Below are positions 6,653 to 63,585 of a stretch of DNA of 64,000 nt, one piece after another; position 1 is the stretch's first letter; each line of letters opens with the position of its first letter. A program made the translations under genes and the position numbers. A model generated the notes under the pieces. That model saw nothing but the letters and a program-made list of their open reading frames with translations, had not been told where the DNA came from and did no database searches. The stretch is from Minisyncoccota bacterium (GTDB lineage: Bacteria; Patescibacteriota; Minisyncoccia; Phycocordibacterales; GWA1-40-21). Where the stretch lies: the NCBI GenBank assembly GCA_041656855.1, contig JBBACS010000001.1, forward strand, positions 3,454 through 67,453, written 5' to 3'.

Positions 6653-9600
6653 TTAGACCACCAAATTCATATTTATAACTCCAGTCTTTATTTCTATAGC
6701 TTCTGTCTTGAACACTTCTGTATAAGTCCCATCATCCTTTTTCTTTTCTACTTTGATGGAATATTTTCCATTAGGTACAAGAGCATAATAAGCCCCAAAT
6801 TTGTCAGCAATTTTCTTTGTAAGCGGAGTATCTTCACCTTCTCTGAATATGGAGACGATAGCAAAGGATAGAGGAGCTTTTGTATGTTTTTCAGTAAGAG
6901 TACCTGATTTCTTAGTCTTGAGTACTACATAATTTAATATGTAAGCTACTATATAGAATCCTGCGATAATGAAGTTGTATGGTGCAGGTGCAAAGATAAC
7001 GGCAATGAAGGCAACTATGGCACCGATAAAGAAGATGACGCTTGATATCTTGGCCCAAGTAATATCTTTTTGCTTCATGAATTTATTTACATTCATCTTG
7101 GTCTTGGCAAATTCATTCCAATCAAATGATAGAGAGTCCATAGGAATATTTTTTGTAATAATTGCGCCTTCTGTTTCAACTGTCATCTCTTCACCAAAAT
7201 ATAAATCATTGTAGACTTCATCAAATGATCTACCTGCCATTTTCTTTGATGGCTGAATATAATTTGTTTTTGTTGCAACTATTTTGTATTTACCTGGTAA
7301 TACAAGGAATCCATATCTTCCATCTATATCTGTAATAGCTCCTGCTACTTCCTTTCCTGTCTCTATACTGATTAGAGATACATACACAGGGTCTAGAGGT
7401 CTCTTTGTGACTGAATCATAGACTGTACCCCATTGTCTTTGTTTTCTCTTTATACCAAGAGCACTGAGAAGCAAGGCAAGTATTCTTGCAGGAATCAACC
7501 ATATTTCAGAGAAAGATATTGGAGTAGCAAAGGCAATTGCTGATATAGATATTGTAGCTCCAGCAATTATACCTGTGGTTGAAATAACTTTTGTTACAGC
7601 AGATCCAGTAGGAGTATTTACTATTGCTCTTGTATTAGCGATTGCATTCTTGGCAATAGATATTACTTGGTCATAACCTTGTTTTGCAGATACACCTATA
7701 TCAGGAACAACGTTCTGATTTGTTTCTGTTCCTGCACTAGTTTCAGTTTGTTGTTCTTGAGTTGGAGTTTCTACTATATCGGTAATTACTTCTGGAATTG
7801 TATTTTCTGGAGCTTTTGGTGTTTCAACTTTTGGAATTACAGGAGCAGAAACTTCTGGAATTGTCTCACATCCTAAAATATCATTTGCTTTCTTTCTTGT
7901 AGCATTTCCAAAGTTTCCAGTTCCTTCTGCTAGACCAAATGGAGCTAATATATCATCTGCATAATATTCTTGGAATGAATGAACTGCAAGTATTGTTTTT
8001 GAACCATAGTAAGTTGTTTCTGAACCTTTTGTTGATGCATTAAATCCTTGGCTGTTTAGGAATATTTGTAGATTTTTTATATCTGAATCTGTTGTGTATT
8101 GATGAAGATTTTTAGTAAAGCAGAAGCCTGAAGGAAGATTAGGAGTTGATGTAACCCCCGGTGCTTCTTCTATTTCTTCAGTAGAAGAAGATGTTGCAAG
8201 TGCTAATGTTGTGGTTGTTGAAGGAACTGTAGAAACTTCTGTAGAGCCTGATGATGGAGAACGGTGTCCACTACTCAAAGCTAAAGTGGTGAATGTAGCA
8301 TCACTTGAATAAGTAGTACCTAAACGATCTGTGATGAAAGCTTGGTAGTGGTATGTGGTGCTAGCTGATAATCCCGTAATATCTGCAGAATATTCACCTG
8401 TAGAAAAAGATCCGGGTTCAGTATATACCGCGGCAACATTCATGCTTCCAATTTTATTTTTATTTACAGCAAATCCAGATGATTCTTTTGTGGTCATTGC
8501 ATATTCCGTGGTAGTACCATATCTGAAACCTCTTGCGGTTATTGTTTCTCCTGCTGTGCTTGTGATGTTTGCTTTCAATGTTGCTGATATATCAGCAACT
8601 ATAGGTGTTTCCAATTCCACATCACGAACAGAAATAATTGACCCGAAAACTGATGAAGAGAAATAACTAAAATTTCCCGCTGCATAAAGAGTGGACCCTG
8701 ATAAGGATAAAGTATATGCAGTAGTCATATGGTCACCTGATTGAGGATTCGGATTAAAACTTGTCGTGGTTGCGACGTCAAGATCATATGCCGCAAGACT
8801 ATTACGCGTTAGACCATTAAAAGTAGTAAAACTTCCTCCCACAAAAAGAATAGAGTCAAATATGGTCATCGTTCGTACAGAAGAACCTGTAGTTGGAATT
8901 ATATTTAAACTTGTCGTAGTTGCGTTTACAAGATCATATGATGCGATGCTTTTTCTAGGTAAACCACCGAAATTGGTAAAATATCCGCCAGCATAGAGAG
9001 TAGAGGTTGCTATTAATAAAGAATTTATTGTTGATGAGTCACCAGGATTTGGGATTGGACCAGGATTAAAATCTGTAGTGGTAGCGTTTGCAATATCATA
9101 TGCGGCAAGACGGTTACGATCGAGGTCTCCAAAAGTGGTAAAATTTCCTCCCACATAAAGAGTTGAACTTGATATGGTGAGAGCATTTACAACAGCAGGG
9201 GTACCTCCCACACCTGGATTAAAATCTGTCGTAGTAGCTGTGAGAATATTGTATGCAGCTATATTATTACGATTGAAACCACCAAAGGTATCAAATTGTC
9301 CTCCCGCGTATAAAATGTCATCTGATATCGCTATGGAATATACATAAGGGGAAAAGCCGGCTCTTGTTATTCCTGGATCAAAATCTGTAGTAGTGTCTGT
9401 GAGAAGATTATATGCCGCAAGGTCACTACGTGTCAGACCATCAAAAATATCAAACCAACCACCCACATAAAGTATATTGTCTGATATAGTCAAAGTGTAT
9501 ACGGCGTGTCCACTATACCATCCTACATTTGGATTAAAATCTGTTGTATTTCTATTTACAAGATCATATGCAGCTAGCCTGTTTCTTGTTTGGCTACCCA

Positions 9601-10882
9601 AAAGATCAAATGTACCCCCTATATAAAGAGTAGAATCTGATAAAGCTAATGTTTTAACTGCACTTCCCGCGTTCACAATCAAATCTGAAGTAGTAGCATT
9701 TGCAAGATCATAAATAGCAAAATTGGTGCGTGGCAGTCCTCCAAAAGTAGTAAATTCGCCACCAATATAAAGATAGGAATCTGATACAGCCAAAGTATAT
9801 ATGGCAGAATTAGCTCCTGCACCTGGATCAAAATCCGTAGTAGTAGCATTTACAAGATCATATGCGGCTATTTTAATACGATCTAATCCTTCAAAGGTAC
9901 TAAACTGACCCCCTACGTAAATAATACCATCTGATATAGTCAAAGCTTTTACGGCGTTGGCACCAATATTTAAACTAAAATCTGTAACGGTGTCTGTAAG
10001 GAGGTCATATGCTGCAAGATAATTACGTCCGAGTCCACCAAAGTTAGTAAAACCTCCACCAGCATAAAGAGTAGAGCTTGATACAGCCAAAGCATACACA
10101 GCAGCATTTGGGCTTGGATTAAAATCTGTAGTAGTCGCATTTATAAGATCGTATGCGGCAATATTGTTGCGTCCTAAATTACCGAAGTCAGAGAATTCAC
10201 CACCGACGTAAAGTGTAGAACTTGATACTACTAAAGAATATATTGACTGCCCTGTATAGGTACTATTTGGATTAAAGCTTGTTACTGTAGCATTTGTAAT
10301 ATCATATGCCGCTAAACTATTACGAGGCAGACCATAAAATGAAGGGAAAGCTCCACCAACATAAAGTATATTATCCGATATGGTCAAAGATCTCACGGCA
10401 TATTCTCCCATATCTGGATTAAAACTAGAATCTACGGTTCCATCAGCTAATATATGTGCCATACCATTTCTTGCTTGGTTATCAACATATGTAAAAGCTC
10501 CTCCTATATACCAGCCTCCTGCTCCATCGCTGACTGAAGCATAAACCTCACCTATAACCTGAGGATAAGAAGCCACCGCTTGTCCAGTAGAAACATTTAT
10601 AGGTACTCCCGCTCCCGTACATGCTCCAACTTCAGTGAAGCTTCCTCCGTAATATAAGATTGAGCCTTCTATTAATGATGTATATATGGATCCATTGGTA
10701 CAGACACCAAGTGATTCGGGTGAATCAAAAACTGCGGCGAGATTGTATGATTTAAGACTAAAAATCTTTTTCCAGTTTTCTTTTGGAACAGATATTAATG
10801 CTAAAGCAACAAGTATAAGTAGCAAAAAGAAAATCAGAAAAGAAGAGGATTTTGTTTTTGTTTGTGGTGTTTTATTTTCCAT
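6653..10882 (-). CDS. giant membrane-anchored surface protein: beta-propeller-type repeats, PG-binding-like domain, C-terminal CarboxypepD_reg-like domain and TM helices
   Basis: N-terminal TM; about 13 repeats of LYVGG.F..FGGL.RN.LAAYDL.NATTTDFNP (delta-60/DUF5122-like); NLQIFLNSQGF...YYGSKT (PG_binding_1-like); DIDGRYGFLVLPGKYKIVATK. Confidence 0.8.
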   Translation of the reverse strand: MENKTPQTKTKSSSFLIFFLLLILVALALISVPKENWKKIFSLKSYNLAAVFDSPESLGVCTNGSIYTSLIEGSILYYGGSFTEVGACTGAGVPINVSTGQAVASYPQVIGEVYASVSDGAGGWYIGGAFTYVDNQARNGMAHILADGTVDSSFNPDMGEYAVRSLTISDNILYVGGAFPSFYGLPRNSLAAYDITNATVTSFNPNSTYTGQSIYSLVVSSSTLYVGGEFSDFGNLGRNNIAAYDLINATTTDFNPSPNAAVYALAVSSSTLYAGGGFTNFGGLGRNYLAAYDLLTDTVTDFSLNIGANAVKALTISDGIIYVGGQFSTFEGLDRIKIAAYDLVNATTTDFDPGAGANSAIYTLAVSDSYLYIGGEFTTFGGLPRTNFAIYDLANATTSDLIVNAGSAVKTLALSDSTLYIGGTFDLLGSQTRNRLAAYDLVNRNTTDFNPNVGWYSGHAVYTLTISDNILYVGGWFDIFDGLTRSDLAAYNLLTDTTTDFDPGITRAGFSPYVYSIAISDDILYAGGQFDTFGGFNRNNIAAYNILTATTTDFNPGVGGTPAVVNALTISSSTLYVGGNFTTFGDLDRNRLAAYDIANATTTDFNPGPIPNPGDSSTINSLLIATSTLYAGGYFTNFGGLPRKSIASYDLVNATTTSLNIIPTTGSSVRTMTIFDSILFVGGSFTTFNGLTRNSLAAYDLDVATTTSFNPNPQSGDHMTTAYTLSLSGSTLYAAGNFSYFSSSVFGSIISVRDVELETPIVADISATLKANITSTAGETITARGFRYGTTTEYAMTTKESSGFAVNKNKIGSMNVAAVYTEPGSFSTGEYSADITGLSASTTYHYQAFITDRLGTTYSSDATFTTLALSSGHRSPSSGSTEVSTVPSTTTTLALATSSSTEEIEEAPGVTSTPNLPSGFCFTKNLHQYTTDSDIKNLQIFLNSQGFNASTKGSETTYYGSKTILAVHSFQEYYADDILAPFGLAEGTGNFGNATRKKANDILGCETIPEVSAPVIPKVETPKAPENTIPEVITDIVETPTQEQQTETSAGTETNQNVVPDIGVSAKQGYDQVISIAKNAIANTRAIVNTPTGSAVTKVISTTGIIAGATISISAIAFATPISFSEIWLIPARILALLLSALGIKRKQRQWGTVYDSVTKRPLDPVYVSLISIETGKEVAGAITDIDGRYGFLVLPGKYKIVATKTNYIQPSKKMAGRSFDEVYNDLYFGEEMTVETEGAIITKNIPMDSLSFDWNEFAKTKMNVNKFMKQKDITWAKISSVIFFIGAIVAFIAVIFAPAPYNFIIAGFYIVAYILNYVVLKTKKSGTLTEKHTKAPLSFAIVSIFREGEDTPLTKKIADKFGAYYALVPNGKYSIKVEKKKDDGTYTEVFKTEAIEIKTGVINMNLVV
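8695..10525 (-). repeat. in-frame tandem coding repeats (about 47 aa / 141 nt each) inside the 1409-aa gene
   Basis: Recurring ...STLYVGG.F..FGGL.RN.IAAYDL.NATTTDFNP... units in the translation; boundaries approximate. Confidence 0.75.
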
Positions 10883-16050: not shown

Positions 16051-16096
16051 ACGTCGCGCCTATAGGACGGTTGCGCGGCGTGACTCCGCAAAGTCA
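16051..16096 (+). repeat. GC-rich two-hairpin motif, family C copy C1
   Basis: ACGTCGCGCCTATAGGACGGTTGCGCGGCGTGACTCCGCAAAGTCA aligns with 24974-25021 and 33172-33217. Confidence 0.8.
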
Positions 16097-16126
16097 AAAA
16101 GCAGGCCTTAAATATGGCCTGCTTTT
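16097..16126 (+). terminator. intrinsic terminator
   Basis: AAAAGCAGGCC-TTAAATAT-GGCCTGCTTTT. Confidence 0.8.
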
Positions 16127-17250: not shown

Positions 17251-17721
17251 ATGAAAATAGTTAGCAAAAGCCTTTCTGATACACAAAAAATAGCCGAGGA
17301 TTTCATAGGTAAAATATCTATGGAGGTTTATAATAATGCACTTGTTGTTGGGCTTTATGGAGATTTAGGTTCTGGAAAAACTACTTTTACTCAAGCTGTG
17401 GCAAAAATTTTTAGTATTAAAGAAGATATAACAAGTCCGACTTTTGTTATTGAAAAAATATATGATATTTCTCACCCCAGTCAAATAAAAAGCCAATTTG
17501 ACGGGGCAAGCAAAGATTTCAAAAAACTTATTCATATAGATGCATATCGTTTGGATTCTGCAAAAGAACTTTCTGCGCTTGATTGGGATAAAACATTAGC
17601 TGATTCAAGAAATATTATTTTTATAGAATGGCCAGAAAGAGTATTAGAAGTATTGCCAGAAAATCATGCAAAAATAAATTTTAAATTTTTGAGCGAGAAT
17701 GAAAGAGAAATTGAAATATAA
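17251..17721 (+). CDS. tsaE: tRNA t6A37 biosynthesis ATPase TsaE
   Basis: Walker A GDLGSGKTTF, SPTFVIEKIY, HIDAYRL. Confidence 0.85.
   Translation: MKIVSKSLSDTQKIAEDFIGKISMEVYNNALVVGLYGDLGSGKTTFTQAVAKIFSIKEDITSPTFVIEKIYDISHPSQIKSQFDGASKDFKKLIHIDAYRLDSAKELSALDWDKTLADSRNIIFIEWPERVLEVLPENHAKINFKFLSENEREIEI
17474..17506 (+). repeat. 33-nt family B palindromic element inserted in frame in tsaE
   Basis: ACCCCAGTCAAATAAAAAGCCAATTTGACGGGG; 32/33 identical to 50546-50578 in argS; encodes PSQIKSQFDGA. Confidence 0.9.
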
Positions 17722-17745: not shown

Positions 17746-17789
17746 ACTACTAACCTCATCTACGCCATGGCGTAGATGAGGTTAGTAGT
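17746..17789. repeat. 44-bp perfect palindrome P1 (core CATCTACGCCATGGCGTAGATG)
   Basis: ACTACTAACCTCATCTACGCCATGGCGTAGATGAGGTTAGTAGT; likely also the tsaE terminator hairpin. Confidence 0.9.
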
Positions 17790-17804: not shown

Positions 17805-18185
17805 ATGAATAAATCAAGAAGATATAAAGGTGTTCCAATAAATTCTTTTGGTATTCCAATACTTAATCCAACTAAAGAAAAAATAAAAGATAAGATTGAT
17901 AGAAGAATTTATCACGATAGTTTTTCAATAAATTTAACTAATTCTTCACCAAAGAATCTTATTGTTATGTATGATATTCCCCATGCACAGAAAAAGGAGA
18001 GAGATTGGTTTCGTAGACATTTAAAAAAGTTTGGTTACATAATGATTCAAAAAAGTGTTTGGGTCGGACCATCCCCGCTACAAAAAGATTTTTTGGAATA
18101 TGTTAAATCCATTGGTTTACTTGGCCAATTAAAATCTTTTAAATTAGCAAAATCATACACAGGTAAAGAAAACTTATTTAAATAA
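17805..18185 (+). CDS. orphan Cas2-fold (Cas2 / PaaX C-terminal-like) protein with about 50-aa N-terminal extension
   Basis: Ferredoxin-like pattern LIVMYDIP-(helix KKERDWFRRHLKKFG)-YIMIQKSVWVG typical of Cas2/PaaX_C; no cas1 or CRISPR array in window. Confidence 0.55.
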   Translation: MNKSRRYKGVPINSFGIPILNPTKEKIKDKIDRRIYHDSFSINLTNSSPKNLIVMYDIPHAQKKERDWFRRHLKKFGYIMIQKSVWVGPSPLQKDFLEYVKSIGLLGQLKSFKLAKSYTGKENLFK

Positions 18186-18204: not shown

Positions 18205-18230
18205 TACATCTACGCCATGGCGTAGATGTA
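18205..18230. repeat. 26-bp perfect palindrome P2 (same 22-bp core)
   Basis: TACATCTACGCCATGGCGTAGATGTA followed by GGGTGTGTTGTTTTTT. Confidence 0.9.
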
Positions 18231-18304
18231 GGGTGTGTTGTTTTTTACAAATTAGCCCTTAATCTTATTAAGAAAAATAAAGCTAAATTTGTTATAATGC
18301 ATAT

Positions 18305-23431: not shown

Positions 23432-24625
23432 TTATTTTGTTTCTCCGGTCTCTTCAGCTTCGACATATTCTCCCTCTACTGAAATTATATCTATTTTCCA
23501 TCCTGTAAGTTTTGCTGCAAGTCTCACATTTTGACCACCTTTTCCTATAGCCAGTGATTGCTGATCTACAGCTACTTCTACTTCCGCTTTTTTCTCTGTT
23601 TCATCTACTGTAACAGAAAGTATTCTGGCAGGAGAAAGTGCTTCCTCAATAAACTTTTTAGGATCTGCTGACCATTCTATAATATCTATTTTTTCTCCAC
23701 CGAGTTCAGACATTACTGTAGAAACTCTTACTCCTCTTTGTCCGACTAGTGAGCCAACTGGATCTATGTGTTCATCTTTTGAAGCAACCGCGATTTTTGA
23801 TCTTGAGCCAGCTTCTCTTGCGATAGATTTTATTTCTATTGTTCCCGCTCCGAGTTCAGGTGATTCTATTCTAAATAACTCTTCTAAAAATTTTGGATGA
23901 GACCTTGAAAGTCTTAAAAATATTCCTTTTGGAGTTTCTTCAACTCTGTAAAGATAGCCTCTGATTCTTTCTCCTGGTTTATATTTTTCTCCTGGAATTT
24001 GTTCTTCAAATGGAAGTATGGCTGTTGCTCTTCCCATATCTACAAAAAGATTTCCTCTCTCAAGTCTTTGTACAATACCTGTGACGATAGTTCCTTCTTT
24101 TTCTCCATATTCATTGAACACAGAAACTTTTTCTGCCTCTCTAATTTTTTGAACAATGACTTGTTTTGCTGTTTGTGCAGCGATTCTTCCATAGTCTGAC
24201 TTTTCTTCAAGAGGGAATACAAGTTCATCTCCAACTTTTGCATCTTTTTTAATTCTTTTTGCATCTTCAAGAAAAATATGATGTTCAGGATTGTAATAGA
24301 CAATTTTTTCTCCATTCTCGTTTACTTCTACTTTTTCTTCTTCTATTCTTCTTGATCTTTTGAATCTTTCTTCAGCTTCAGTGTCTTCTTTTTCTTCACG
24401 AACAACAACGCTGTCTTTGTCCACAACAGTTTTTACTTGGATGAATTCCATTTTACCAGAAGCTAAATCTACTTTTGCTTTAATTATTTGGCCTCTTTTT
24501 CCGTATTCTTTTTTGTAGGCGGTGGCAAGAGCCATTTCAATAGCCTCAAGCATTTTGGCTTTAGGTATTCCTCTTTCTTGTTCCATTTGTTCTACCACAG
24601 AGTTTATTACTTTTAGGTCTATCAT
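23432..24625 (-). CDS. nusA: transcription termination/antitermination factor NusA
   Basis: S1 domain (IVTGIVQRLERGNLFVDMG), two KH domains (VGQRGVRV, IGKGGQNVRLA). Confidence 0.9.
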   Translation of the reverse strand: MIDLKVINSVVEQMEQERGIPKAKMLEAIEMALATAYKKEYGKRGQIIKAKVDLASGKMEFIQVKTVVDKDSVVVREEKEDTEAEERFKRSRRIEEEKVEVNENGEKIVYYNPEHHIFLEDAKRIKKDAKVGDELVFPLEEKSDYGRIAAQTAKQVIVQKIREAEKVSVFNEYGEKEGTIVTGIVQRLERGNLFVDMGRATAILPFEEQIPGEKYKPGERIRGYLYRVEETPKGIFLRLSRSHPKFLEELFRIESPELGAGTIEIKSIAREAGSRSKIAVASKDEHIDPVGSLVGQRGVRVSTVMSELGGEKIDIIEWSADPKKFIEEALSPARILSVTVDETEKKAEVEVAVDQQSLAIGKGGQNVRLAAKLTGWKIDIISVEGEYVEAEETGETK

Positions 24626-24667
24626 GATGATTTTCTTAGCGAACGATAGTGAGGTTAGAAAATCATC

Positions 24668-24702
24668 ACCCCGTCAAATTGTATTTTCATTTGACTGGGG
24701 TG
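24668..24702 (-). repeat. family B palindromic element (short form)
   Basis: CACCCCGTCAAATTGTATTTTCATTTGACTGGGGTG on plus strand = family B motif in reverse orientation. Confidence 0.85.
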
Positions 24703-24742
24703 GCTCCATATTCTTACCACCGTTCAATTAATTAATAATGTG

Positions 24743-24800
24743 ACCCCAGTCAAATACTTGCTACGCAAGTTTTTCGCTATACGCGAAAATTTGACGGGGT
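24743..24800 (+). repeat. family B palindromic element (58 nt, with nested hairpins)
   Basis: ACCCCAGTCAAAT...ATTTGACGGGGT; loop carries ACTTGC-TAC-GCAAGT and TTTTCGC-TATAC-GCGAAAA. Confidence 0.85.
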
Positions 24801-24898
24801 TTAGAAAAATATAGTCGCTATACTCCTTATTTTTCTAAAAAAACGAGCCCGCCTTTCGGGCGAACTTCAATAAACACATATTATCAGTATTTAGTCTT

Positions 24899-24927
24899 TT
24901 GTCAATTGTCTATATCTTTGGTACAAT
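24899..24927 (+). promoter_or_regulatory. candidate promoter for the 1271-aa gene
   Basis: TTGTCA, 17-nt spacer, TGGTACAAT extended -10. Confidence 0.5.
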
Positions 24928-24973
24928 ATTCGGTATAACTTGTCGTTATTTAATAACTTTATCAATTTAATTT

Positions 24974-25021
24974 ACGTCGCGCTTAATGAACGGCTGCGCT
25001 TGACGTGATTTTGCAAAATCA
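24974..25021 (+). repeat. family C two-hairpin motif, copy C2; second hairpin abuts ATG 25022
   Basis: ACGTCGCGCTTAATGAACGGCTGCGCTTGACGTGATTTTGCAAAATCA-ATG. Confidence 0.8.
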
Positions 25022-28000
25022 ATGAAAAAAATATTTATATCACTCCTTTCTGTATTTGTTCTCGGTGCAGTTTTTTGTAATGTTGCATCTGCACAAACGG
25101 TAGAGTCTATATCATATACTGTGGCTACAGTAAATATATATAATTCAAAAATAGTCTCAAGTAATGACAGGAACTACAAAATATCTTTTGACTTATCAAA
25201 TGATAGCGGCGTCCAATCTCAGATACGATATTCTGTACAACTTACAAAAACAGTATCAAGTTCATCGGATGTAGTAGTAGATGAGAAAATATATGACCCA
25301 ATATTCTCTATAGACGAAAAAACAACTATTCCCCAATCTGTAGTTTATTCAATACCAAGTTCGCTAGGGAAGGGTGATTACAAACTTTGGGTTTATAGTA
25401 AAAACAATAACGGTCTTATTTTAGCTGCTGCCTATGTTGGTGAAATAAAACTTACCACTGATCTTCCAAATACAGTAGAAATAATTCCAGAGTCTTGTTA
25501 TGTCACAATAAAAAATAATGCTAATTCAAGCAAGTATTATCTTGGAGATTTGGCAAGTATTGTTTCAAAAGATAGTTTGGTAATGAATTGTTCTGTTTCT
25601 AACAGATATACATCAGATGTATCACTTGTACCTTTGTTTGAAACAAGAGTTCGTTCTATGTATGGAGAAACAGTGTCACAGATAGAAGGAACACAGGGGA
25701 CAATTACTATAAAAAAAGGTAAAAATAATATCGAAGTAGCTTTGCCAAAAGCTTTAGTCCCACAAACATACGTAAATGTTTTTTCTTTGGTATCAGATGA
25801 CAAAAAAATATCTACAAACAATATTATTACAACTTATTCTTTGGAAGGAGAAAGTGGTTCTATAATGAATGCGGTTTTTGACAAAACTTCATACAAAAAG
25901 GGAGAAATCGCTAATGTTAAGATATTCTCAATGCTTGAATTGAGCGGAAGTACTTCCACTGCATCAACCGCTTCAATATCTGTCTCGGTCACCAATCAAG
26001 AAAACAGACTTTGTTCAGAAGTAATTAAAAAAGATGCATCTACTGCGCCGGTGGTAGAAATACCTGTTCCTGTGATAGAAGATTGTGTAAATCCAAAAGC
26101 TAACATTATTCTTTCTTCCACAAATACAAACGGAGAAAATCTCGCTCTAGATACCCAAAGTTTTGATGTCACTACACCAAAGAAAGATATTCCTATTGAT
26201 TATAAACAAATTGCCATTGCTTCTGTTATATTTATTTTATTAATTATTATTTTAACAATTATATACAGGAGGAAAAATGTTTCTGTAATAAAAGTTCTTG
26301 CACTATTTATCATTTGTGCCGGATTTATGCTAGGTATGACAAATAAGGCGGAAGCTTTAACGGAGTACATAAAATATCAGACGTCTAATAAATCCGACGA
26401 TAATTGTTATTATAATATGGCTGATTGTTACATGAATTTTACTTATAATTTAAATAAAGCTAGCACAGATTTTTATTTACCTGGTGAATCTATTATTGTT
26501 ACAGGTATAGTGGGGGGAGGTAAAGCGGATACCCCATCCTTGAATCCAGCCGGACGTCAATACCATACTGTGTACATGAAGGATTTAAAAATAGATAGTT
26601 CAAGTGATCAAAGAATATTAGTGCAAAGTGATGTCCAGGGGCCTTGGGATAAGTGTTCCGATAATTGGAACAGATCCTTTCCAAACAAAACAGGTACACA
26701 AACTTTCACAGCACCTTCTACTCCGGGGGTTCATAATATGAATGTTACATATTATAATAATTTTAGTTGGTTATCTTATGGATTGTTTTGTATAACGGGA
26801 CAAACCCAAAATTCTACTAATATCTTTGCTACAAGATCTTTGCCTTTTACAGTTAAAGATATTATTACTCCCACTTATTCATTAGATTTTCATCTTTCTA
26901 AGGACCCTTCTTATATTGGTGAAGTAGAAGGAAATACTGTGACCGTTTCTTTGTATACAACAAATGTTAGTAATGGAACTTTAGTTCCTTATACTATTAC
27001 TGGTGTGAGCCAAGCTGATATCGGAGTACCTCTCTCTGGACATTTTACCGCTGTTACCAACAATTATTATTCAGAACTACAAATACCAATTCTTACAGAT
27101 AATATAACTGAGGGCCAAGAGAAACTTGTTTTGTCAGTAGGAAATACTCAAGGAGGTTTCACTATTCTTGATAAGATTGTTGTTTCTGCCGATATATCAG
27201 CAAATCCGAACCCTGTTTTGGCAGGTAGTTCATCAACTATTTCTTGGACTTCAACAGGATTTGATTCCTGTACCATGACAAATGAGAATACTGGTTCTTT
27301 ATTAAATAATTTATCTTGGACTTCAATTCCAAACGCAGTTGGTTATGTATCAAAGGCGATAACTTATGGAAATGGTTTATTTGTTGCTGTGGAGGATAAT
27401 CACTATATAAATCCAATTCGAGGGGCAATTATGACTTCTCCTGACGGTCTAACGTGGACAGCACGTACCTCACCAACAACAAATGTTTTGTATTCTGTTG
27501 CTTATGGTAATGGAAGATTTGTTGCAGTTGGAGTCGGTAATAAAATTATTACATCTACAAATGGAATAGACTGGGTGGCAACCCCTGGTCCAATTGAACA
27601 AACCTCAACAACATGGGTATCCGTAACATATGGTCCACTTTTGTGGGTAGCTATTGGTGGTGCGGGTCAATCAATGACTTCTAGTGATGGATTAACTTGG
27701 AAATCACAGGGGAATGGAATGCGTTATGGACTGGAAGCAGTTATCTATGGCGCAGGATTTGTTGCTGTGGGAGAAGGGGGGGTACAAACTTCACTCAACG
27801 GTCTTAATTGGACTACTCAAACTCCAGCTGTTTCAGCACATTGGAATTCGGTAGCCTATAGCCCAACTGGAACCGTACGATATGTTGCTGTTTCCTATGG
27901 CGGTAAGATAATGACAGCCCCTGTTAGTGGAAATGTTTGGACACTAAGAAACACTCCAGTTACTTTTGATCCTAGTGATCTCGGTACTAATTATTTGAGT

Positions 28001-33171: not shown

Positions 33172-33217
33172 TCGTCGCGCTTAAATGACGGTTGCGCGAC
33201 GTGATTTCGCAAAATCA
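33172..33217 (+). repeat. family C two-hairpin motif, copy C3
   Basis: TCGTCGCGCTTAAATGACGGTTGCGCGACGTGATTTCGCAAAATCA; perfect 8-bp stem CGTCGCGC/GCGCGACG. Confidence 0.85.
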
Positions 33218-33223
33218 ACCTGT

Positions 33224-38835: not shown

Positions 38836-39648
38836 ATGGATATTAAATACATAGATATTCATTCTCATTTAGGTTTTGGTGATTATCAAAATGATTTTTC
38901 TGATGTTCTAAAAAGAATGGAAGACGCAGAAGTTGAAACTATCACTGTTGGTACAGATTTGGAAAGTTCAAAAGAAGCGATAAAAATTGCTGATGAAAAT
39001 GAAAATGTTTGGGCTTGTATCGGTTCTCACCCAGCTGATAAAAGAGATTTTATATTTGAAGAAAAAGATTTTGAAAGTCTAGTAAAAAATCCGAAAGTCG
39101 TAGCAATAGGTGAATGCGGTTTGGATTATTTTCATATTGAAAAAGAATTTGGAGACGGGGAAGTTTCTGAAAATAATATCAATAAAGAAAAAGAACGCCA
39201 AAAAAAAGAATTTATTAAACAGATTGAATTTTCAATAAAACACAATAAACCACTAATGTTGCATCTACGCCATGGCGTAGATGATGTTTTTGCTGATGCT
39301 TATAATATACTAAATAAATATAAAGGAAAAGTAAGAGCAAATATGCATTTTTTTGCAGGAAGCTTGGATTGGGCGAAAAAGTTCATAGAGCTAGGTTTTA
39401 ATATTTCTTTCACTGGTGTCATTACATTTGCAAGACAATATGATGAAATTATTAAAAATATTTCTTTAGATAAAATACAAGCAGAAACAGATTCTCCTTA
39501 TGTAGCGCCAATTCCTTATAGAGGAGAGAGAAATGAACCATCTTATGTTATAGAAGTTGTTAAAAAGATTGCAGAAATACGCGGGGAAAATTTTGAAACA
39601 GTACGAAAACAACTTTTACAAAATTCTAAAGACTTTTTTGGCGTTTAA
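38836..39648 (+). CDS. tatD: TatD family metal-dependent hydrolase
   Basis: DIHSHL, GECGLDY, MLHLRH, ETDSPY. Confidence 0.85.
   Translation: MDIKYIDIHSHLGFGDYQNDFSDVLKRMEDAEVETITVGTDLESSKEAIKIADENENVWACIGSHPADKRDFIFEEKDFESLVKNPKVVAIGECGLDYFHIEKEFGDGEVSENNINKEKERQKKEFIKQIEFSIKHNKPLMLHLRHGVDDVFADAYNILNKYKGKVRANMHFFAGSLDWAKKFIELGFNISFTGVITFARQYDEIIKNISLDKIQAETDSPYVAPIPYRGERNEPSYVIEVVKKIAEIRGENFETVRKQLLQNSKDFFGV
39262..39283. repeat. 22-bp perfect palindrome P3 inside tatD (same core as P1/P2)
   Basis: CATCTACGCCATGGCGTAGATG, encodes HLRHGVDD. Confidence 0.9.
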
Positions 39649-41468: not shown

Positions 41469-41567
41469 TTTTGTTTGTATTTTATGGTACTATATTTTAG
41501 TAGCCCCCTCGGGGGTTTTTAAATACAAATTTAATAAATTCACGAGCGAAGCGACTATAATTTATTA

Positions 41568-41621
41568 ATCCATCCCCACTTTTATTTTTAAATGTTTTTA
41601 AAAATAAAAGTGGGGATGGAT
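41568..41621 (+). promoter_or_regulatory. 54-nt perfect hairpin upstream of secE
   Basis: 23-nt arms ATCCATCCCCACTTTTATTTTTA / TAAAAATAAAAGTGGGGATGGAT, 8-nt loop; 3' arm overlaps ATG 41620. Confidence 0.7.
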
Positions 41622-41661
41622 GATGATTTTAAAATTCACTTCGTTCATAATAAAATCAATC

Positions 41662-41841
41662 ATGTCAAAACTATCAAATTATATTTCAGAGACAAAGGAA
41701 GAGATGAAACACGTCAGCTGGCCAACAAAAAAACAAACTTTAATGTTTACTATACTTGTGATTTTTATTTCAATCGGAGTAGCAGCATACTTGGGAGTTT
41801 TTGACTTTTTATTCCAGTTAGGACTTAAGAGCATTATATAA
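41662..41841 (+). CDS. secE: preprotein translocase subunit SecE (listed ORF starts at 41620)
   Basis: MSKLSNYISETKEEMKHVSWPTKKQ + one TM; precedes nusG. Confidence 0.8.
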   Translation: MSKLSNYISETKEEMKHVSWPTKKQTLMFTILVIFISIGVAAYLGVFDFLFQLGLKSII

Positions 41842-49131: not shown

Positions 49132-50838
49132 GTGATTAAAAACATACTAGAAAATTCAATAAAGACCGCGCTTTGGTCTCTCAAGATAGATGAAAAGAAA
49201 GTTTCTAAGATAAATTTGGAACATCCAGAGGAACTATCTCATGGAGATTATTCTTGTAATATCGCGATGATTCTTGCAAAACAAGTTGCTCAAAATCCGC
49301 GAGAACTTGCAGAAAAGATTGTTGCAGAAATAAATGAAAGAAAACCAGAAGAGATTTCAAGAGTAGAAGTTGCCGGTCCCGGATTTATAAACTTTTATTT
49401 GTCTTCTGAATTTTTTGTTAATGAAAGTAAAGAAATACTTTGTGACTGTAATGATTTTGGTAGAAGCAAGATTGGAGAAGGAAAGAAGGTAGTTGTTGAA
49501 TATTCTTCTCCGAACATCGCAAAGCCATTTACTATTGGGCACTTGCGCTCAACTGTTATAGGCGATGCCATTGCAAACATTTTAGATTACTCAGGATATA
49601 AAGTAATCCGTGACAATCACTTGGGAGATTGGGGAACACAGTTTGGTAAGCTTATTGTAGCTATAAAAACTTGGTCATCACTTGATAAAATAAAAAAATC
49701 AAAACAACCTATAAAAGATTTGGTAGATTTGTATGTAAAATTTCATGATGAAGCAGAAAAAGATTTAGCTTTAGATAATGAGGCTCGAGATTGGTTTACA
49801 AAGCTTGAAAAAAATAATAAAGAAGCAAAAAATATATGGAATGTATGTGTAAAGCTTTCAATGAAAGAATTTGAAAAAATATATAAACGCCTTGGGGTAA
49901 AATTTGATACTGCATATGGTGAAAGTTACTTTGAAAAGAAAATGCAAGAGGTTTTGAAAGATATAAATAAACTAAATCTTGCAAAGGAGAGTGAAGGAGC
50001 ATACCTGGTATTTTTCAAAGATGATAAATATCCTCCGATGATGCTTTTGAAAAAAGATGGCTCAACAATATATGCTCTTCGTGATTTAGCTACGGATAAA
50101 TTTAGAAAGGAGAAGTATGGAAAAGATGTCGTAATCATAAATGAAGTTGGAATGGAACAGAGTTTGCACTTCGAACAGATTTTTGAGACGGAAAGATTGC
50201 TTGGATATTCAAATGGTGCAGACAGAATACATGTTAAACATGGTTTTTATCGTTTTCCAGAAGGTAAGATGAGTACGAGAAAGGGAAATGGTATCTGGCT
50301 AGATGAAGTTCTTGATGAAGCAGTCGTAAAAGCTGCAGCGTTTGATAAAAATACAGCAGAGGTAGTTGGAATCGGTGCAATAAAGTTTAACGATCTAAAA
50401 AGAGAAAGTTCAAAAGATATAATTTTTAATTGGGATGAGATATTAAACTTGAAAGGGGATTCAGGACCATATTTACAATATTCATATGCCCGTGCGAAAT
50501 CTATTTTGAGAAAAGCTAAAGAGGATGGTGTAAAAGCTAAAGTTAACCCCAGTCAAATGAAAAGCCAATTTGACGGGGCGAGTATTACAATACTCGAAAA
50601 ATTACTTTATAGATTTCCTGAGGTTGTGGAAAGGGCAGGAGCTGAATATTCACCACACTACATTGCAACTTATCTTATTGAGCTTGCCTCATCATTTAAT
50701 AATTTTTACGGACAAGGAAAGATTGTAGATAAAACAGATGCAAATTCCCCATACAAAGTTGCACTTACAGAAGCTTTCTCAATTGTTTTGAAAAATGGAC
50801 TTAATCTTTTGGGTATTTCCGCTCCAGAAAAAATGTGA
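49132..50838 (+). CDS. argS: arginyl-tRNA synthetase (GTG start)
   Basis: SSPNIAKPFTIGHLRS, MSTRKG, DALR anticodon-binding C-terminus. Confidence 0.9.
   Translation: MIKNILENSIKTALWSLKIDEKKVSKINLEHPEELSHGDYSCNIAMILAKQVAQNPRELAEKIVAEINERKPEEISRVEVAGPGFINFYLSSEFFVNESKEILCDCNDFGRSKIGEGKKVVVEYSSPNIAKPFTIGHLRSTVIGDAIANILDYSGYKVIRDNHLGDWGTQFGKLIVAIKTWSSLDKIKKSKQPIKDLVDLYVKFHDEAEKDLALDNEARDWFTKLEKNNKEAKNIWNVCVKLSMKEFEKIYKRLGVKFDTAYGESYFEKKMQEVLKDINKLNLAKESEGAYLVFFKDDKYPPMMLLKKDGSTIYALRDLATDKFRKEKYGKDVVIINEVGMEQSLHFEQIFETERLLGYSNGADRIHVKHGFYRFPEGKMSTRKGNGIWLDEVLDEAVVKAAAFDKNTAEVVGIGAIKFNDLKRESSKDIIFNWDEILNLKGDSGPYLQYSYARAKSILRKAKEDGVKAKVNPSQMKSQFDGASITILEKLLYRFPEVVERAGAEYSPHYIATYLIELASSFNNFYGQGKIVDKTDANSPYKVALTEAFSIVLKNGLNLLGISAPEKM
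50546..50578 (+). repeat. 33-nt family B palindromic element inserted in frame in argS
   Basis: ACCCCAGTCAAATGAAAAGCCAATTTGACGGGG; encodes PSQMKSQFDGA. Confidence 0.9.
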
Positions 50839-63050: not shown

Positions 63051-63404
63051 TTATTTATAAATAACTTCAATTATTTTTTCTGTATTTCTGCCGAATTTAT
63101 CACTTGCCTTTATTGTAATTACATTATATCCGTATGAAAGCAACACCTCTTCCTTAAAATTTCCTTGTTCATCTATAAAGATTTTTCTGTCATTTAAGCT
63201 GATACTGTTTATATTCTTGGCAATTCCCGATACCTCAGTTAATGAATTTGATATCAATGACCCATTTTGGGGGGAGAGAACTTCTATTCTTGGTCCAAAT
63301 ATTATTCTTTGTATTTCATAAGCAGTATAACCAAAAATAAATAATATAATTGCAGAGATAAGAATTATTTGCAGTAATTTCCTTGTTGTGTGCCGGTCAG
63401 TCAT
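63051..63404 (-). CDS. membrane-anchored Ig-like domain protein, unknown function
   Basis: N-terminal TM, beta-rich domain (RIEVLSPQNGS...VITIKASDKFG). Confidence 0.55.
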   Translation of the reverse strand: MTDRHTTRKLLQIILISAIILFIFGYTAYEIQRIIFGPRIEVLSPQNGSLISNSLTEVSGIAKNINSISLNDRKIFIDEQGNFKEEVLLSYGYNVITIKASDKFGRNTEKIIEVIYK

Positions 63405-63442
63405 GGCTGATTTTTAATGAACGAAGTGAATGTAAAAATCGC

Positions 63443-63585
63443 CACCCAGTCAAATAAGGTTTGAGTGCTTTTTGAAAATTTGTGTTAATTGCTGATTTTA
63501 TGTTATTCATAATTTTGGTCTATTCTTCACCTGCTCAAACCTTAGAATTAATTTTTATTAAAAAATTAATTCTATTTGACGGGGT
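63443..63585 (+). repeat. family B palindromic element, long form (143 nt)
   Basis: CACCCAGTCAAAT ... ATTTGACGGGGT; nested stems AAGGTTTGAG/CTCAAACCTT and AGAATTAATTTTT/AAAAATTAATTCT; followed by the 46-nt module also seen at 24790-24835. Confidence 0.8.

Follow-up and report, generated by a model that had tools for sequence, protein, structure and literature searches.

A 36-nucleotide bulged-hairpin repeat, probably mobile, found in frame in housekeeping genes of Patescibacteria

Rickettsia palindromic elements (RPEs) are repeats of about 150 bp, grouped in ten families, that reside in frame within many unrelated housekeeping genes of Rickettsia. The peptide they add is compatible with the fold of the host protein, copies also occur between genes, and the enzyme that mobilises them is unknown (PMC10969869). 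The MITEs, or miniature inverted-repeat transposable elements, are small, non-autonomous and characterized by inverted repeats, and they are sometimes intragenic and in frame (PMC10969869). Coding DNA with dyad symmetry and a patchy distribution that resembles horizontal gene transfer is also found in PARCELs, which form tandem arrays of 25-residue repeats in proteins of unknown function that are often targeted to the membrane (PMC2996958). Here we describe a 36-nt hairpin-forming element that occurs in frame in tsaE and argS, and also between genes, in a stretch of 64,000 nt (hereafter the window, meaning the whole stretch analysed) on contig JBBACS010000001.1 of a Minisyncoccota bacterium. 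We assign a probability of about 0.6 to the reading that this element is a very short, non-autonomous, hairpin-shaped mobile DNA repeat that behaves like an RPE.

The likeness to RPEs lies in a palindromic repeat that sits in frame in unrelated protein genes, at a loop position compatible with the fold, and that is also found between genes. An earlier note on this DNA had proposed RPE-like behaviour. This holds for lineage-specific, in-frame occurrence in unrelated genes and for intergenic occurrence, whereas the size class differs: the element is a single bulged hairpin of 36 nt (12 amino acids) in Patescibacteria and is set apart by the size described for RPEs. Like MITEs (e.g. Correia, ERIC and Nezha), the element is small, non-autonomous, built on an inverted repeat and intragenic in frame, but the target duplication typical of MITEs is absent, its length is below the usual MITE size and no parent insertion sequence is known. 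With PARCELs it shares coding dyad symmetry and a patchy distribution, whereas it is present as single insertions in housekeeping enzymes.

The copies in the window and the two host genes are as follows.

17475-17510, plus strand: 36-nt unit in tsaE, consisting of the hairpin CCCCAGTCAAAT-AAAAAGCCA-ATTTGACGGGG (17475-17506) and the tail CAAG (17507-17510).
50547-50582, plus strand: 36-nt unit in argS, CCCCAGTCAAAT-GAAAAGCCA-ATTTGACGGGG followed by the tail CGAG.
24669-24701, minus strand: short intergenic copy, 44 nt upstream of the nusA start (24625).
24743-24799, plus strand: long-loop copy of 57 nt with the same outer stem, the loop being replaced by two small hairpins.
63443-63584, plus strand: copy of 142 nt whose 5' arm (CACCCAGTCAAAT) is slightly degenerate and which encloses two inverted repeats.
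17251-17721, plus strand: host gene tsaE, 156 amino acids, intact (Pfam PF02367, E 5e-29, profile positions 3-128 of 128).
49132-50838, plus strand: host gene argS, 568 amino acids, all three Pfam domains intact.

The 33-mer ACCCCAGTCAAATAAAAAGCCAATTTGACGGGG (ACCCCAGTCAAAT-N9-ATTTGACGGGG) occurs at 17474-17506 (plus strand), with a one-mismatch copy (32 of 33 positions identical) at 50546-50578 (plus strand), exactly as had been claimed, and a three-mismatch copy at 24669-24701 (minus strand); no match to the 33-mer arose by chance in 100 shuffles. The two long-loop copies (24743-24799 and 63443-63584) were picked up by an arm-only search of the window, and all three intergenic occurrences listed in the earlier note are thereby accounted for. 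There are ten arm matches in the 64-kb window, every one of them in a paired hairpin, which corresponds to about five elements per 64 kb. The short hairpin comprises 4 bp, one bulged A, 7 bp and a 9-nt A-rich loop. The bulge is as first described, and the stem has 11 pairs, with a closing A-T pair added in some copies. The folding energy of the element as RNA is -13 to -15 kcal/mol (z about -4 relative to shuffled sequences), and the 57-nt copy is predicted to form a three-way junction (-25.2 kcal/mol). The inner hairpins of this long-loop copy show no repeat elsewhere in the window, and the idea of nested repeats was dropped. Together with the short copy at 24669-24701 it makes an inverted doublet; further doublets are present in L038, L026 and L303 (L numbers denote loci and P numbers proteins). 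On the minus strand, the short copy is followed by a second conserved hairpin, here called the 'module', that reaches the ATG of nusA. The 142-nt copy carries module sequence on both flanks and lies upstream of a minus-strand gene starting at 63404. The window has 33% G+C and a GC skew that is positive throughout, and it starts inside dnaN.

Comparison of filled and empty sites defines the inserted unit. Among 80 tsaE loci recovered by a protein-guided scan (one genome per species), eleven orthologues (L153-L163, 64-84% identical) are exactly 12 codons shorter at the insert point, so the orthologue comparison proposed in the earlier note reveals empty sites in related genomes. The empty site reads CAC|AAA (L154, L157 and L167) and the window reads CAC-[CCC AGT CAA ATA AAA AGC CAA TTT GAC GGG GCA AGC]-AAA; the relatives already have, in their empty sites, the A found at 17474. 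In a large protein database, TsaE relatives that are 75-95% identical carry the same insert (P0001-P0005 and P0008), and others at 83-85% identity lack it (P0010 and many proteins of 144 residues). Related genomes supply three further filled/empty pairs: L023 and L042 differ reciprocally at two sites of a RecJ-like gene, and L019 and L020 differ at one site of an RsmE-like gene. In all four pairs, deletion of exactly CCCCAGTCAAAT-N9-ATTTGACGGGG(C/T)AAG (36 nt) restores the sequence of the empty relative, and therefore the unit comprises 12 codons, not the 11 originally counted. It consists of a 32-nt hairpin plus a 4-nt tail, usually CAAG, and the claim that the frame is preserved in both tsaE and argS stands with the corrected length, both open reading frames (ORFs) being intact.

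The insertions are real and precise. In each of the four pairs the unit follows a resident A (junctions CA^C in tsaE, GA^C in L019, AA^G in L042 and CA^A in L023), and none of them has a target-site duplication. Alignment of the flanks of 31 coding copies shows the conserved 5' A, the CAAG-like 3' tail and no other conserved flank. The A always lies directly 5' of the unit, and this one-base target is weaker than those of known IS200/IS605-type elements. Independent assemblies carry the insert at the same site both in TsaE (P0001-P0005, P0008, L282 and L289) and in ArgRS (L013, L015, L068, L241, L254, L298 and L301), which excludes the assembly artefact that the earlier note had named as a possible refutation. 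The other refutation that it had named would have been the same peptide specified by unrelated DNA; no such case turned up, and it is the DNA that is conserved.

Fold compatibility was looked at in two hosts, TsaE and ArgRS, whose encoded peptides are HPSQIKSQFDGAS and NPSQMKSQFDGAS, as stated originally. The insert supplies TsaE residues P76-S87. In an AlphaFold2 model of the window protein (pLDDT 85.5, pTM 0.84, TM-score 0.74 to the H. influenzae YjeE structure 1HTW) these residues fall between strands 68-72 and 92-97 and are predicted to form an extended loop. pLDDT drops to 60-72 over the insert and the fold is otherwise confident, so that the structure check proposed in advance places the insert in a loop between two strands of an intact fold. 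Alignments to solved TsaE structures in the PDB show a gap at this position. In ArgRS the insert forms residues 473-484, within a linker at the start of the DALR anticodon-binding domain that is variable in length and sequence across 80 orthologues.

The ArgRS of the closest relative, L073 (84% identical), lacks the element and differs there by something other than a clean indel. L013, L015 and L068 have the element at the same site, and their overall protein identity to the window is only 48-54%. A sliding-window comparison resolves these three genes into mosaics. Identity to the window is mostly 75-92% in the N-terminal domain (1-90) and the C-terminal domain (429-568) but only 17-50% in the catalytic core, and the DNA flanking the element in the C-terminal part is 81-87% identical; the ArgRS proteins of L073-L075 are uniformly similar to that of the window. 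Deep DNA-level conservation at this site was thus rejected, since the element-bearing domains are themselves 75-92% identical and therefore imply none. The mosaicism shows recombination within argS and implies recombinational replacement either of the catalytic core or of the flanking domains, and the shared site is compatible with common descent or with transfer of that gene segment.

Across public genomes and metagenomes, we counted 189 copies with exact arms, of which 93 reside in long ORFs, 79 are non-coding and 17 are unclear. A tabulation of coding versus intergenic copies had been proposed for the whole genome; across these collections the sense frame dominates among coding copies. The 93 coding copies form 57 site families. 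Hosts identified with Pfam include GatA amidase, RsmE, RecJ, asparagine synthase (AsnB), DNA polymerase I (PolA), RF2 (prfB), an AlkD-like repair protein, RNase H (rnhA), ComEC and UvrA, in addition to TsaE and ArgRS; these are housekeeping genes that share no common pathway. Stop codons interrupt three of the canonical element's six frames. The open ones are the sense frame (PSQIKSQFDG) and two antisense frames, both of which encode hydrophobic peptides (PVKLAFYLTG and PRQIGFLFDWG). Most coding copies use the single stop-free sense frame, giving the peptide (N/H/D)PSQIKSQFDGA(S/R/G). When canonical coding sites are grouped by orthology, 37 are in sense and 9 in antisense orientation (P = 7e-11 against the one-in-three expectation).

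The few antisense coding copies recur at orthologous sites (L234, L293, L299 and L014; L056, L275, L329 and L330). One such site lies in the C-terminal tail of a VirD4/TraD-like ATPase (YPVKLDSHLTG), the other in a different protein (LPRQIEFLFDWGG).

The stem and its bulge are maintained. Alignment of 16 distinct arm pairs gives paired bases in 96.6% of cells, with six of the 11 pairs changed on both sides, and neither any of 500 shuffles nor any slid register matches the observed pairing. Diverged copies that lie close to canonical ones retain the stem. One in L033 (ACCACAGTCAGAC...GTCTGACGTGGC), located within a 298-codon ORF, has undergone three double changes that keep the hairpin, and its peptide now reads HSQTKSQSDV. 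Diverged copies of L019, L001, L026 and L171 carry one double change each, and the bulged A is kept in most diverged copies. Long-loop variants from five genomes conserve the outer stem and carry two small hairpins of unrelated sequence. Orientation is also uneven, at 29 sense versus 11 antisense for non-coding copies between co-directional genes and 15 versus 2 for long-loop forms, counts that include orthologous copies and are therefore indicative only.

The family is multi-copy and patchy. A search of a species-representative genome collection with the arm pattern (loop of 5-35 nt) returned 72 loci from about 30 assemblies, nearly all Patescibacteria; carriers include Paceibacterota, Taylorbacteria, Moranbacteria and further metagenome-assembled genomes (MAGs), and 104 additional metagenome contigs match the pattern. 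A covariance model of the hairpin matched one canonical copy in 325 kb from 98 other related genomes and, in the window, known copies only, with no decayed ones. The distribution is thus a patchy one, with copies that hardly differ in the genomes that have them. The sampled parts of each of four genomes hold 8-12 exact copies. Loops from the same genome agree at 7.39 of 9 positions, those from different genomes at 6.46 of 9 (permutation p < 0.0005); for example, AAAAAGCCA is the loop in eight of nine sampled copies of one MAG, and mostly AAAAAATCA is found in another. This likeness fits amplification or homogenisation inside each genome and, like the lack of decayed copies in the window and the single copy in 98 other related genomes, is a sign of recent spread.

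The only carrier found outside Patescibacteria is a Desulfovermiculus MAG, which has two exact-arm copies with a 20-nt loop (L057 7438-7480 and L059 6805-6847). Both are intergenic, with similar 5' flanks, on contigs of more than 200 kb whose composition is unlike that of the candidate phyla radiation (CPR). Third-party MAG labels such as 'Saccharibacteria' and 'Gammaproteobacteria' conflict with close likeness of the genes to those of Paceibacteria, and therefore spread across classes is not claimed. A phage vector was likewise rejected, as there was no arm-pattern match among 2.9 million viral contigs. In a Taylorbacteria MAG, the element is contained in a longer shared repeat with an identical 24-nt 5' flank (GTACTCTTGTGGTACAACGGGATG) and the 3' flank CAGGCAGA. 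This longer repeat is present in three contexts (L045 5724-5790, L049 5913-5980 and L055 1-70), one of which is uvrA.

A mobile repeat of this kind would be copied to new sites directly after an A without duplication of the target and, because its length is 12 codons, would never shift the reading frame. Genic copies would mostly survive where the hydrophilic sense frame is read and the protein can accommodate one more loop, with copies in other frames or positions presumably purged. Most probably, an enzyme that recognises structure and is encoded elsewhere would handle the unit as a folded single strand. The best fit would be a transposase of the HUH/Y1 class, of IS200/IS605-RAYT type (RAYT, REP-associated tyrosine transposase), because of the lack of target duplication, the conserved extrahelical base, the strand bias and the co-varying stems. 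Single-strand handling by such enzymes, in both IS200/IS605 and REP-RAYT systems, yields precise insertion beside a fixed base without duplication and goes along with an extrahelical base, co-varying stems and strand bias.

Three systems of this kind invite closer comparison. IS200/IS605-family ends and their ORF-less derivatives use a short target (4-5 nt) that is not duplicated, form single-stranded DNA hairpins with an extrahelical base, show strand bias and may excise precisely. The present element has no target duplication, an extrahelical base and a strand bias, and its A may be a short target of this sort, but IS200/IS605 elements have two different end hairpins and span hundreds of bases, whereas this unit is a single 32-nt hairpin with a 4-nt tail whose target is only an A, and no TnpA was found among the window ORFs scanned. 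Repetitive extragenic palindromic (REP) elements are imperfect palindromes of 20-40 nt with a 5' GTAG and co-varying stems. REP elements and their doublets (REPINs), served by RAYTs, resemble the element as short imperfect hairpin palindromes with many copies per genome, occasional inverted doublets and co-varying stems, and recognition of the element by shape, as for REP, is plausible by analogy. However, about half of the copies described here are intragenic (93 of 189), GTAG is absent from the hairpin foot, and no RAYT/Y1 gene is present among the 26 window ORFs scanned. Integron attC sites are folded stems with an extrahelical base whose terminal structure ranges from a small loop to branched forms. 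The element matches this in its stem, its extrahelical base and its small-loop or branched long-loop terminus, but it has no R/L box consensus, cassette array or nearby integrase, and its copies lie inside genes.

Several observations weigh against a mobile repeat. A Pfam scan of 26 window ORFs revealed neither a transposase nor any other gene for mobilisation, and no insertion event was caught in progress. A tree built from the flanking TsaE sequence, itself poorly resolved, intersperses insert-bearing alleles with empty ones, a pattern that calls for a hot spot, for precise loss on repeated occasions or for recombinational exchange of alleles. The copy counts come from exact-arm searches in which orthologous copies are not independent. 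In addition, the orientation of non-coding copies and the hairpin kept at the expense of the peptide in L033 could each reflect selection on a functional hairpin, and the orientation bias together with the conserved bulge leaves room for a DNA- or RNA-level function. With regard to a parent insertion sequence, no arm pair that clearly brackets an ORF was seen in the 72 genome loci, a few isolated arms having been left uninspected. The Cas2-like ORF beside tsaE was considered and dropped as mobiliser, since its flanking palindrome is a different one and the ORF is absent between tsaE and polA in L157.

One alternative, which we consider rather improbable, is that the hairpin is a functional RNA or single-stranded DNA site, bound by a host protein, for example in mRNA processing, stability or replication, that has been dispersed and retained for its function, coding copies being tolerated because the sense frame is benign. 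Compensatory stem changes and the conserved bulged A would be expected of such a site, as would the L033 copy that kept its hairpin while its peptide changed, but compensatory change is equally expected of a palindrome recognised by a transposase or of arms homogenised with each other. The sense bias of non-coding and long-loop copies (29:11 and 15:2), the shared outer stem with two sequence-unrelated hairpins in the long-loop variants of different genomes, and the two copies in the Desulfovermiculus genome also speak for a function, and a conserved leader that immediately precedes start codons contains some intergenic copies at a constant position. However, only about seven of the 189 copies have this leader association, so a general 5'-leader function was rejected, and the nusA leader region contains both orientations. 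Moreover, the element is present or absent in essential genes among close relatives, most related genomes lack it, and its host genes have no common pathway. The window has no match in Rfam 15 at the gathering score, with chance-level matches only in 24600-25050, and a terminator was rejected because no T-run follows the hairpin on either strand. Less probable again is a scenario without dedicated transposition, in which a small number of founder insertions, products of replication template switching or comparable accidents, spread between related cells that took up DNA and recombined homologous gene segments, gene conversion making the copies uniform. The argS mosaics of L013, L015 and L068 around the element, the filled TsaE alleles scattered among empty ones, the ComEC encoded by carrier genomes, and a palindrome inside tatD that is partly built from native codons (see below) are all in keeping with it. 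It cannot account for the same 36-nt unit in 57 site families of unrelated genes, and that independent sites share exact boundaries and a CAAG tail indicates the insertion of a defined molecule. We regard as very improbable that the arms constitute a DNA-uptake signal, as in Neisseria and Haemophilus, or a palindromic repressor operator similar to CIRCE. Conserved arms, a fixed 9-nt spacer of variable sequence and hosts that are predicted to be competent would agree with such a role. Yet uptake signals are mostly solitary and have a density of roughly one per kb, whereas the element occurs about five times per 64 kb with arms that are almost never single; about half of the copies are insertions in unrelated coding genes, and most related genomes lack them. 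A promoter was also rejected, as the spacing between the TTGACG of the 3' arm and the flanking module's TATAAT is only 13 nt, too short for one.

If the element is a mobile repeat, as we favour, it would probably be selfish. Palindromes that encode protein segments in frame have so far been treated as a peculiarity of Rickettsia, and the same behaviour in ultra-small Patescibacteria of free-living habitats would indicate a more general route of protein-loop evolution in reduced genomes. The element could account for some unexplained insertions in CPR proteins, and annotators might then treat such segments as repeat-derived rather than as lineage-specific functional motifs. The sharply defined substrate A^CCCC...GGGGCAAG^ offers a means of tracing the responsible enzyme. 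Consistent with the earlier remark that no such report existed for this kind of organism, full-text literature searches that paired Patescibacteria or CPR with in-frame inverted repeats, palindromic elements or MITEs returned no relevant report. A more far-reaching and tentative possibility, which we hold to be doubtful in its entirety, is that the 36-nt unit would be smaller than any self-contained mobile DNA known so far: a single bulged hairpin that a structure-specific Patescibacteria enzyme would move in its folded single-stranded form, leaving no target duplication. Together with several unrelated palindrome families that enter the same protein loops, it might form a major route of loop gain in the essential proteins of these reduced genomes, and alternatively or additionally it might be a dispersed protein-binding RNA or DNA signal selected even inside coding sequence.

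The TsaE loop that receives the element holds at least six other in-frame inserts in other Paceibacteria, and in the DNA these are unrelated palindromes. Some are GC-rich and give the loop segment a folding energy of -18 to -36 kcal/mol.

L187: AACCAAGGCCCGGCCTTGG..., -35.7 kcal/mol with the whole loop segment folded.
L205 and L221: CCTGCCTGCCGGCAGGCAGG.
L208 and L228: CCCTCTCCTT...AAGGAGAGGG.
L220: CCTCCCCCTTGGTAAGGGGGAGG.
L170 and L180: AT-rich palindromes.

Insert peptide families at this loop in close relatives include TWTLSVQV and PIRT...SNGTG, and TsaE proteins with other loop inserts are P0006, P0025, P0081, P0016, P0029 and P0073. These inserts mark the TsaE loop as a hot spot for palindromic insertions. 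Thus, in-frame palindromic insertion looks general in these genomes, and the element is one family among several.

A second family in the window is the perfect 22-nt palindrome CATCTACGCCATGGCGTAGATG, with copies at 17757-17783, 18207-18233 and 39262-39288. Two copies bracket the small Cas2-like/PaaX_M ORF (17805-18185) between tsaE and polA, and in L157 polA directly follows tsaE without this ORF. The third copy is inside tatD. The conserved H-x-R motif is encoded there by its left arm, and its right arm matches four codons (HGVD) in excess of the solved TatD structures.

The module (TGATGATTTTTATA(A/G)TCGCTTCGCTCATTAAAAATCAATC) is present in the window at 24625-24668 (minus strand), 41617-41665 (plus strand) and 63404-63442 (minus strand), and also in L003, L016, L018, L027, L034, L039, L040 and L067. 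It abuts the ATG of unrelated genes (nusA, a secE-like ORF, and ftsE-like, rplJ-like and yebC-like genes) and forms a hairpin with a bulged A whose arms co-vary (GATGA/TCATC versus GGCGA/TCAGCC). At 41530-41665 it flanks a different 25-bp palindrome. A third repeat, ACGTCGCGC-N-GCGCGACGTGAnTTnGCAAAnTCAA, contains an inverted repeat and is found at 16052-16097, 33173-33218 and 24973-25021, always between genes. Two copies lie 0-10 nt from an ORF start (25022 and 33229) and the third lies about 100 nt upstream of one (16198); a search with one copy gave no Rfam match.

Upstream of nusA, the minus strand at 24838-24905 carries a promoter-like TTGACA-16-TAATAT with, directly after it on the same strand, a strong terminator-like hairpin and a T-run. 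This is a possible attenuator in the nusA leader of about 245 nt, which also includes both hairpin elements. The nusA gene itself (23432-24625, minus strand) encodes an N-terminal domain whose match spans 158 residues against 115 profile positions, equivalent to an insertion of about 40 residues. Finally, a 1409-codon ORF at 6653-10882 (minus strand) includes about ten diverged tandem repeats of roughly 150 nt (8748-10401).

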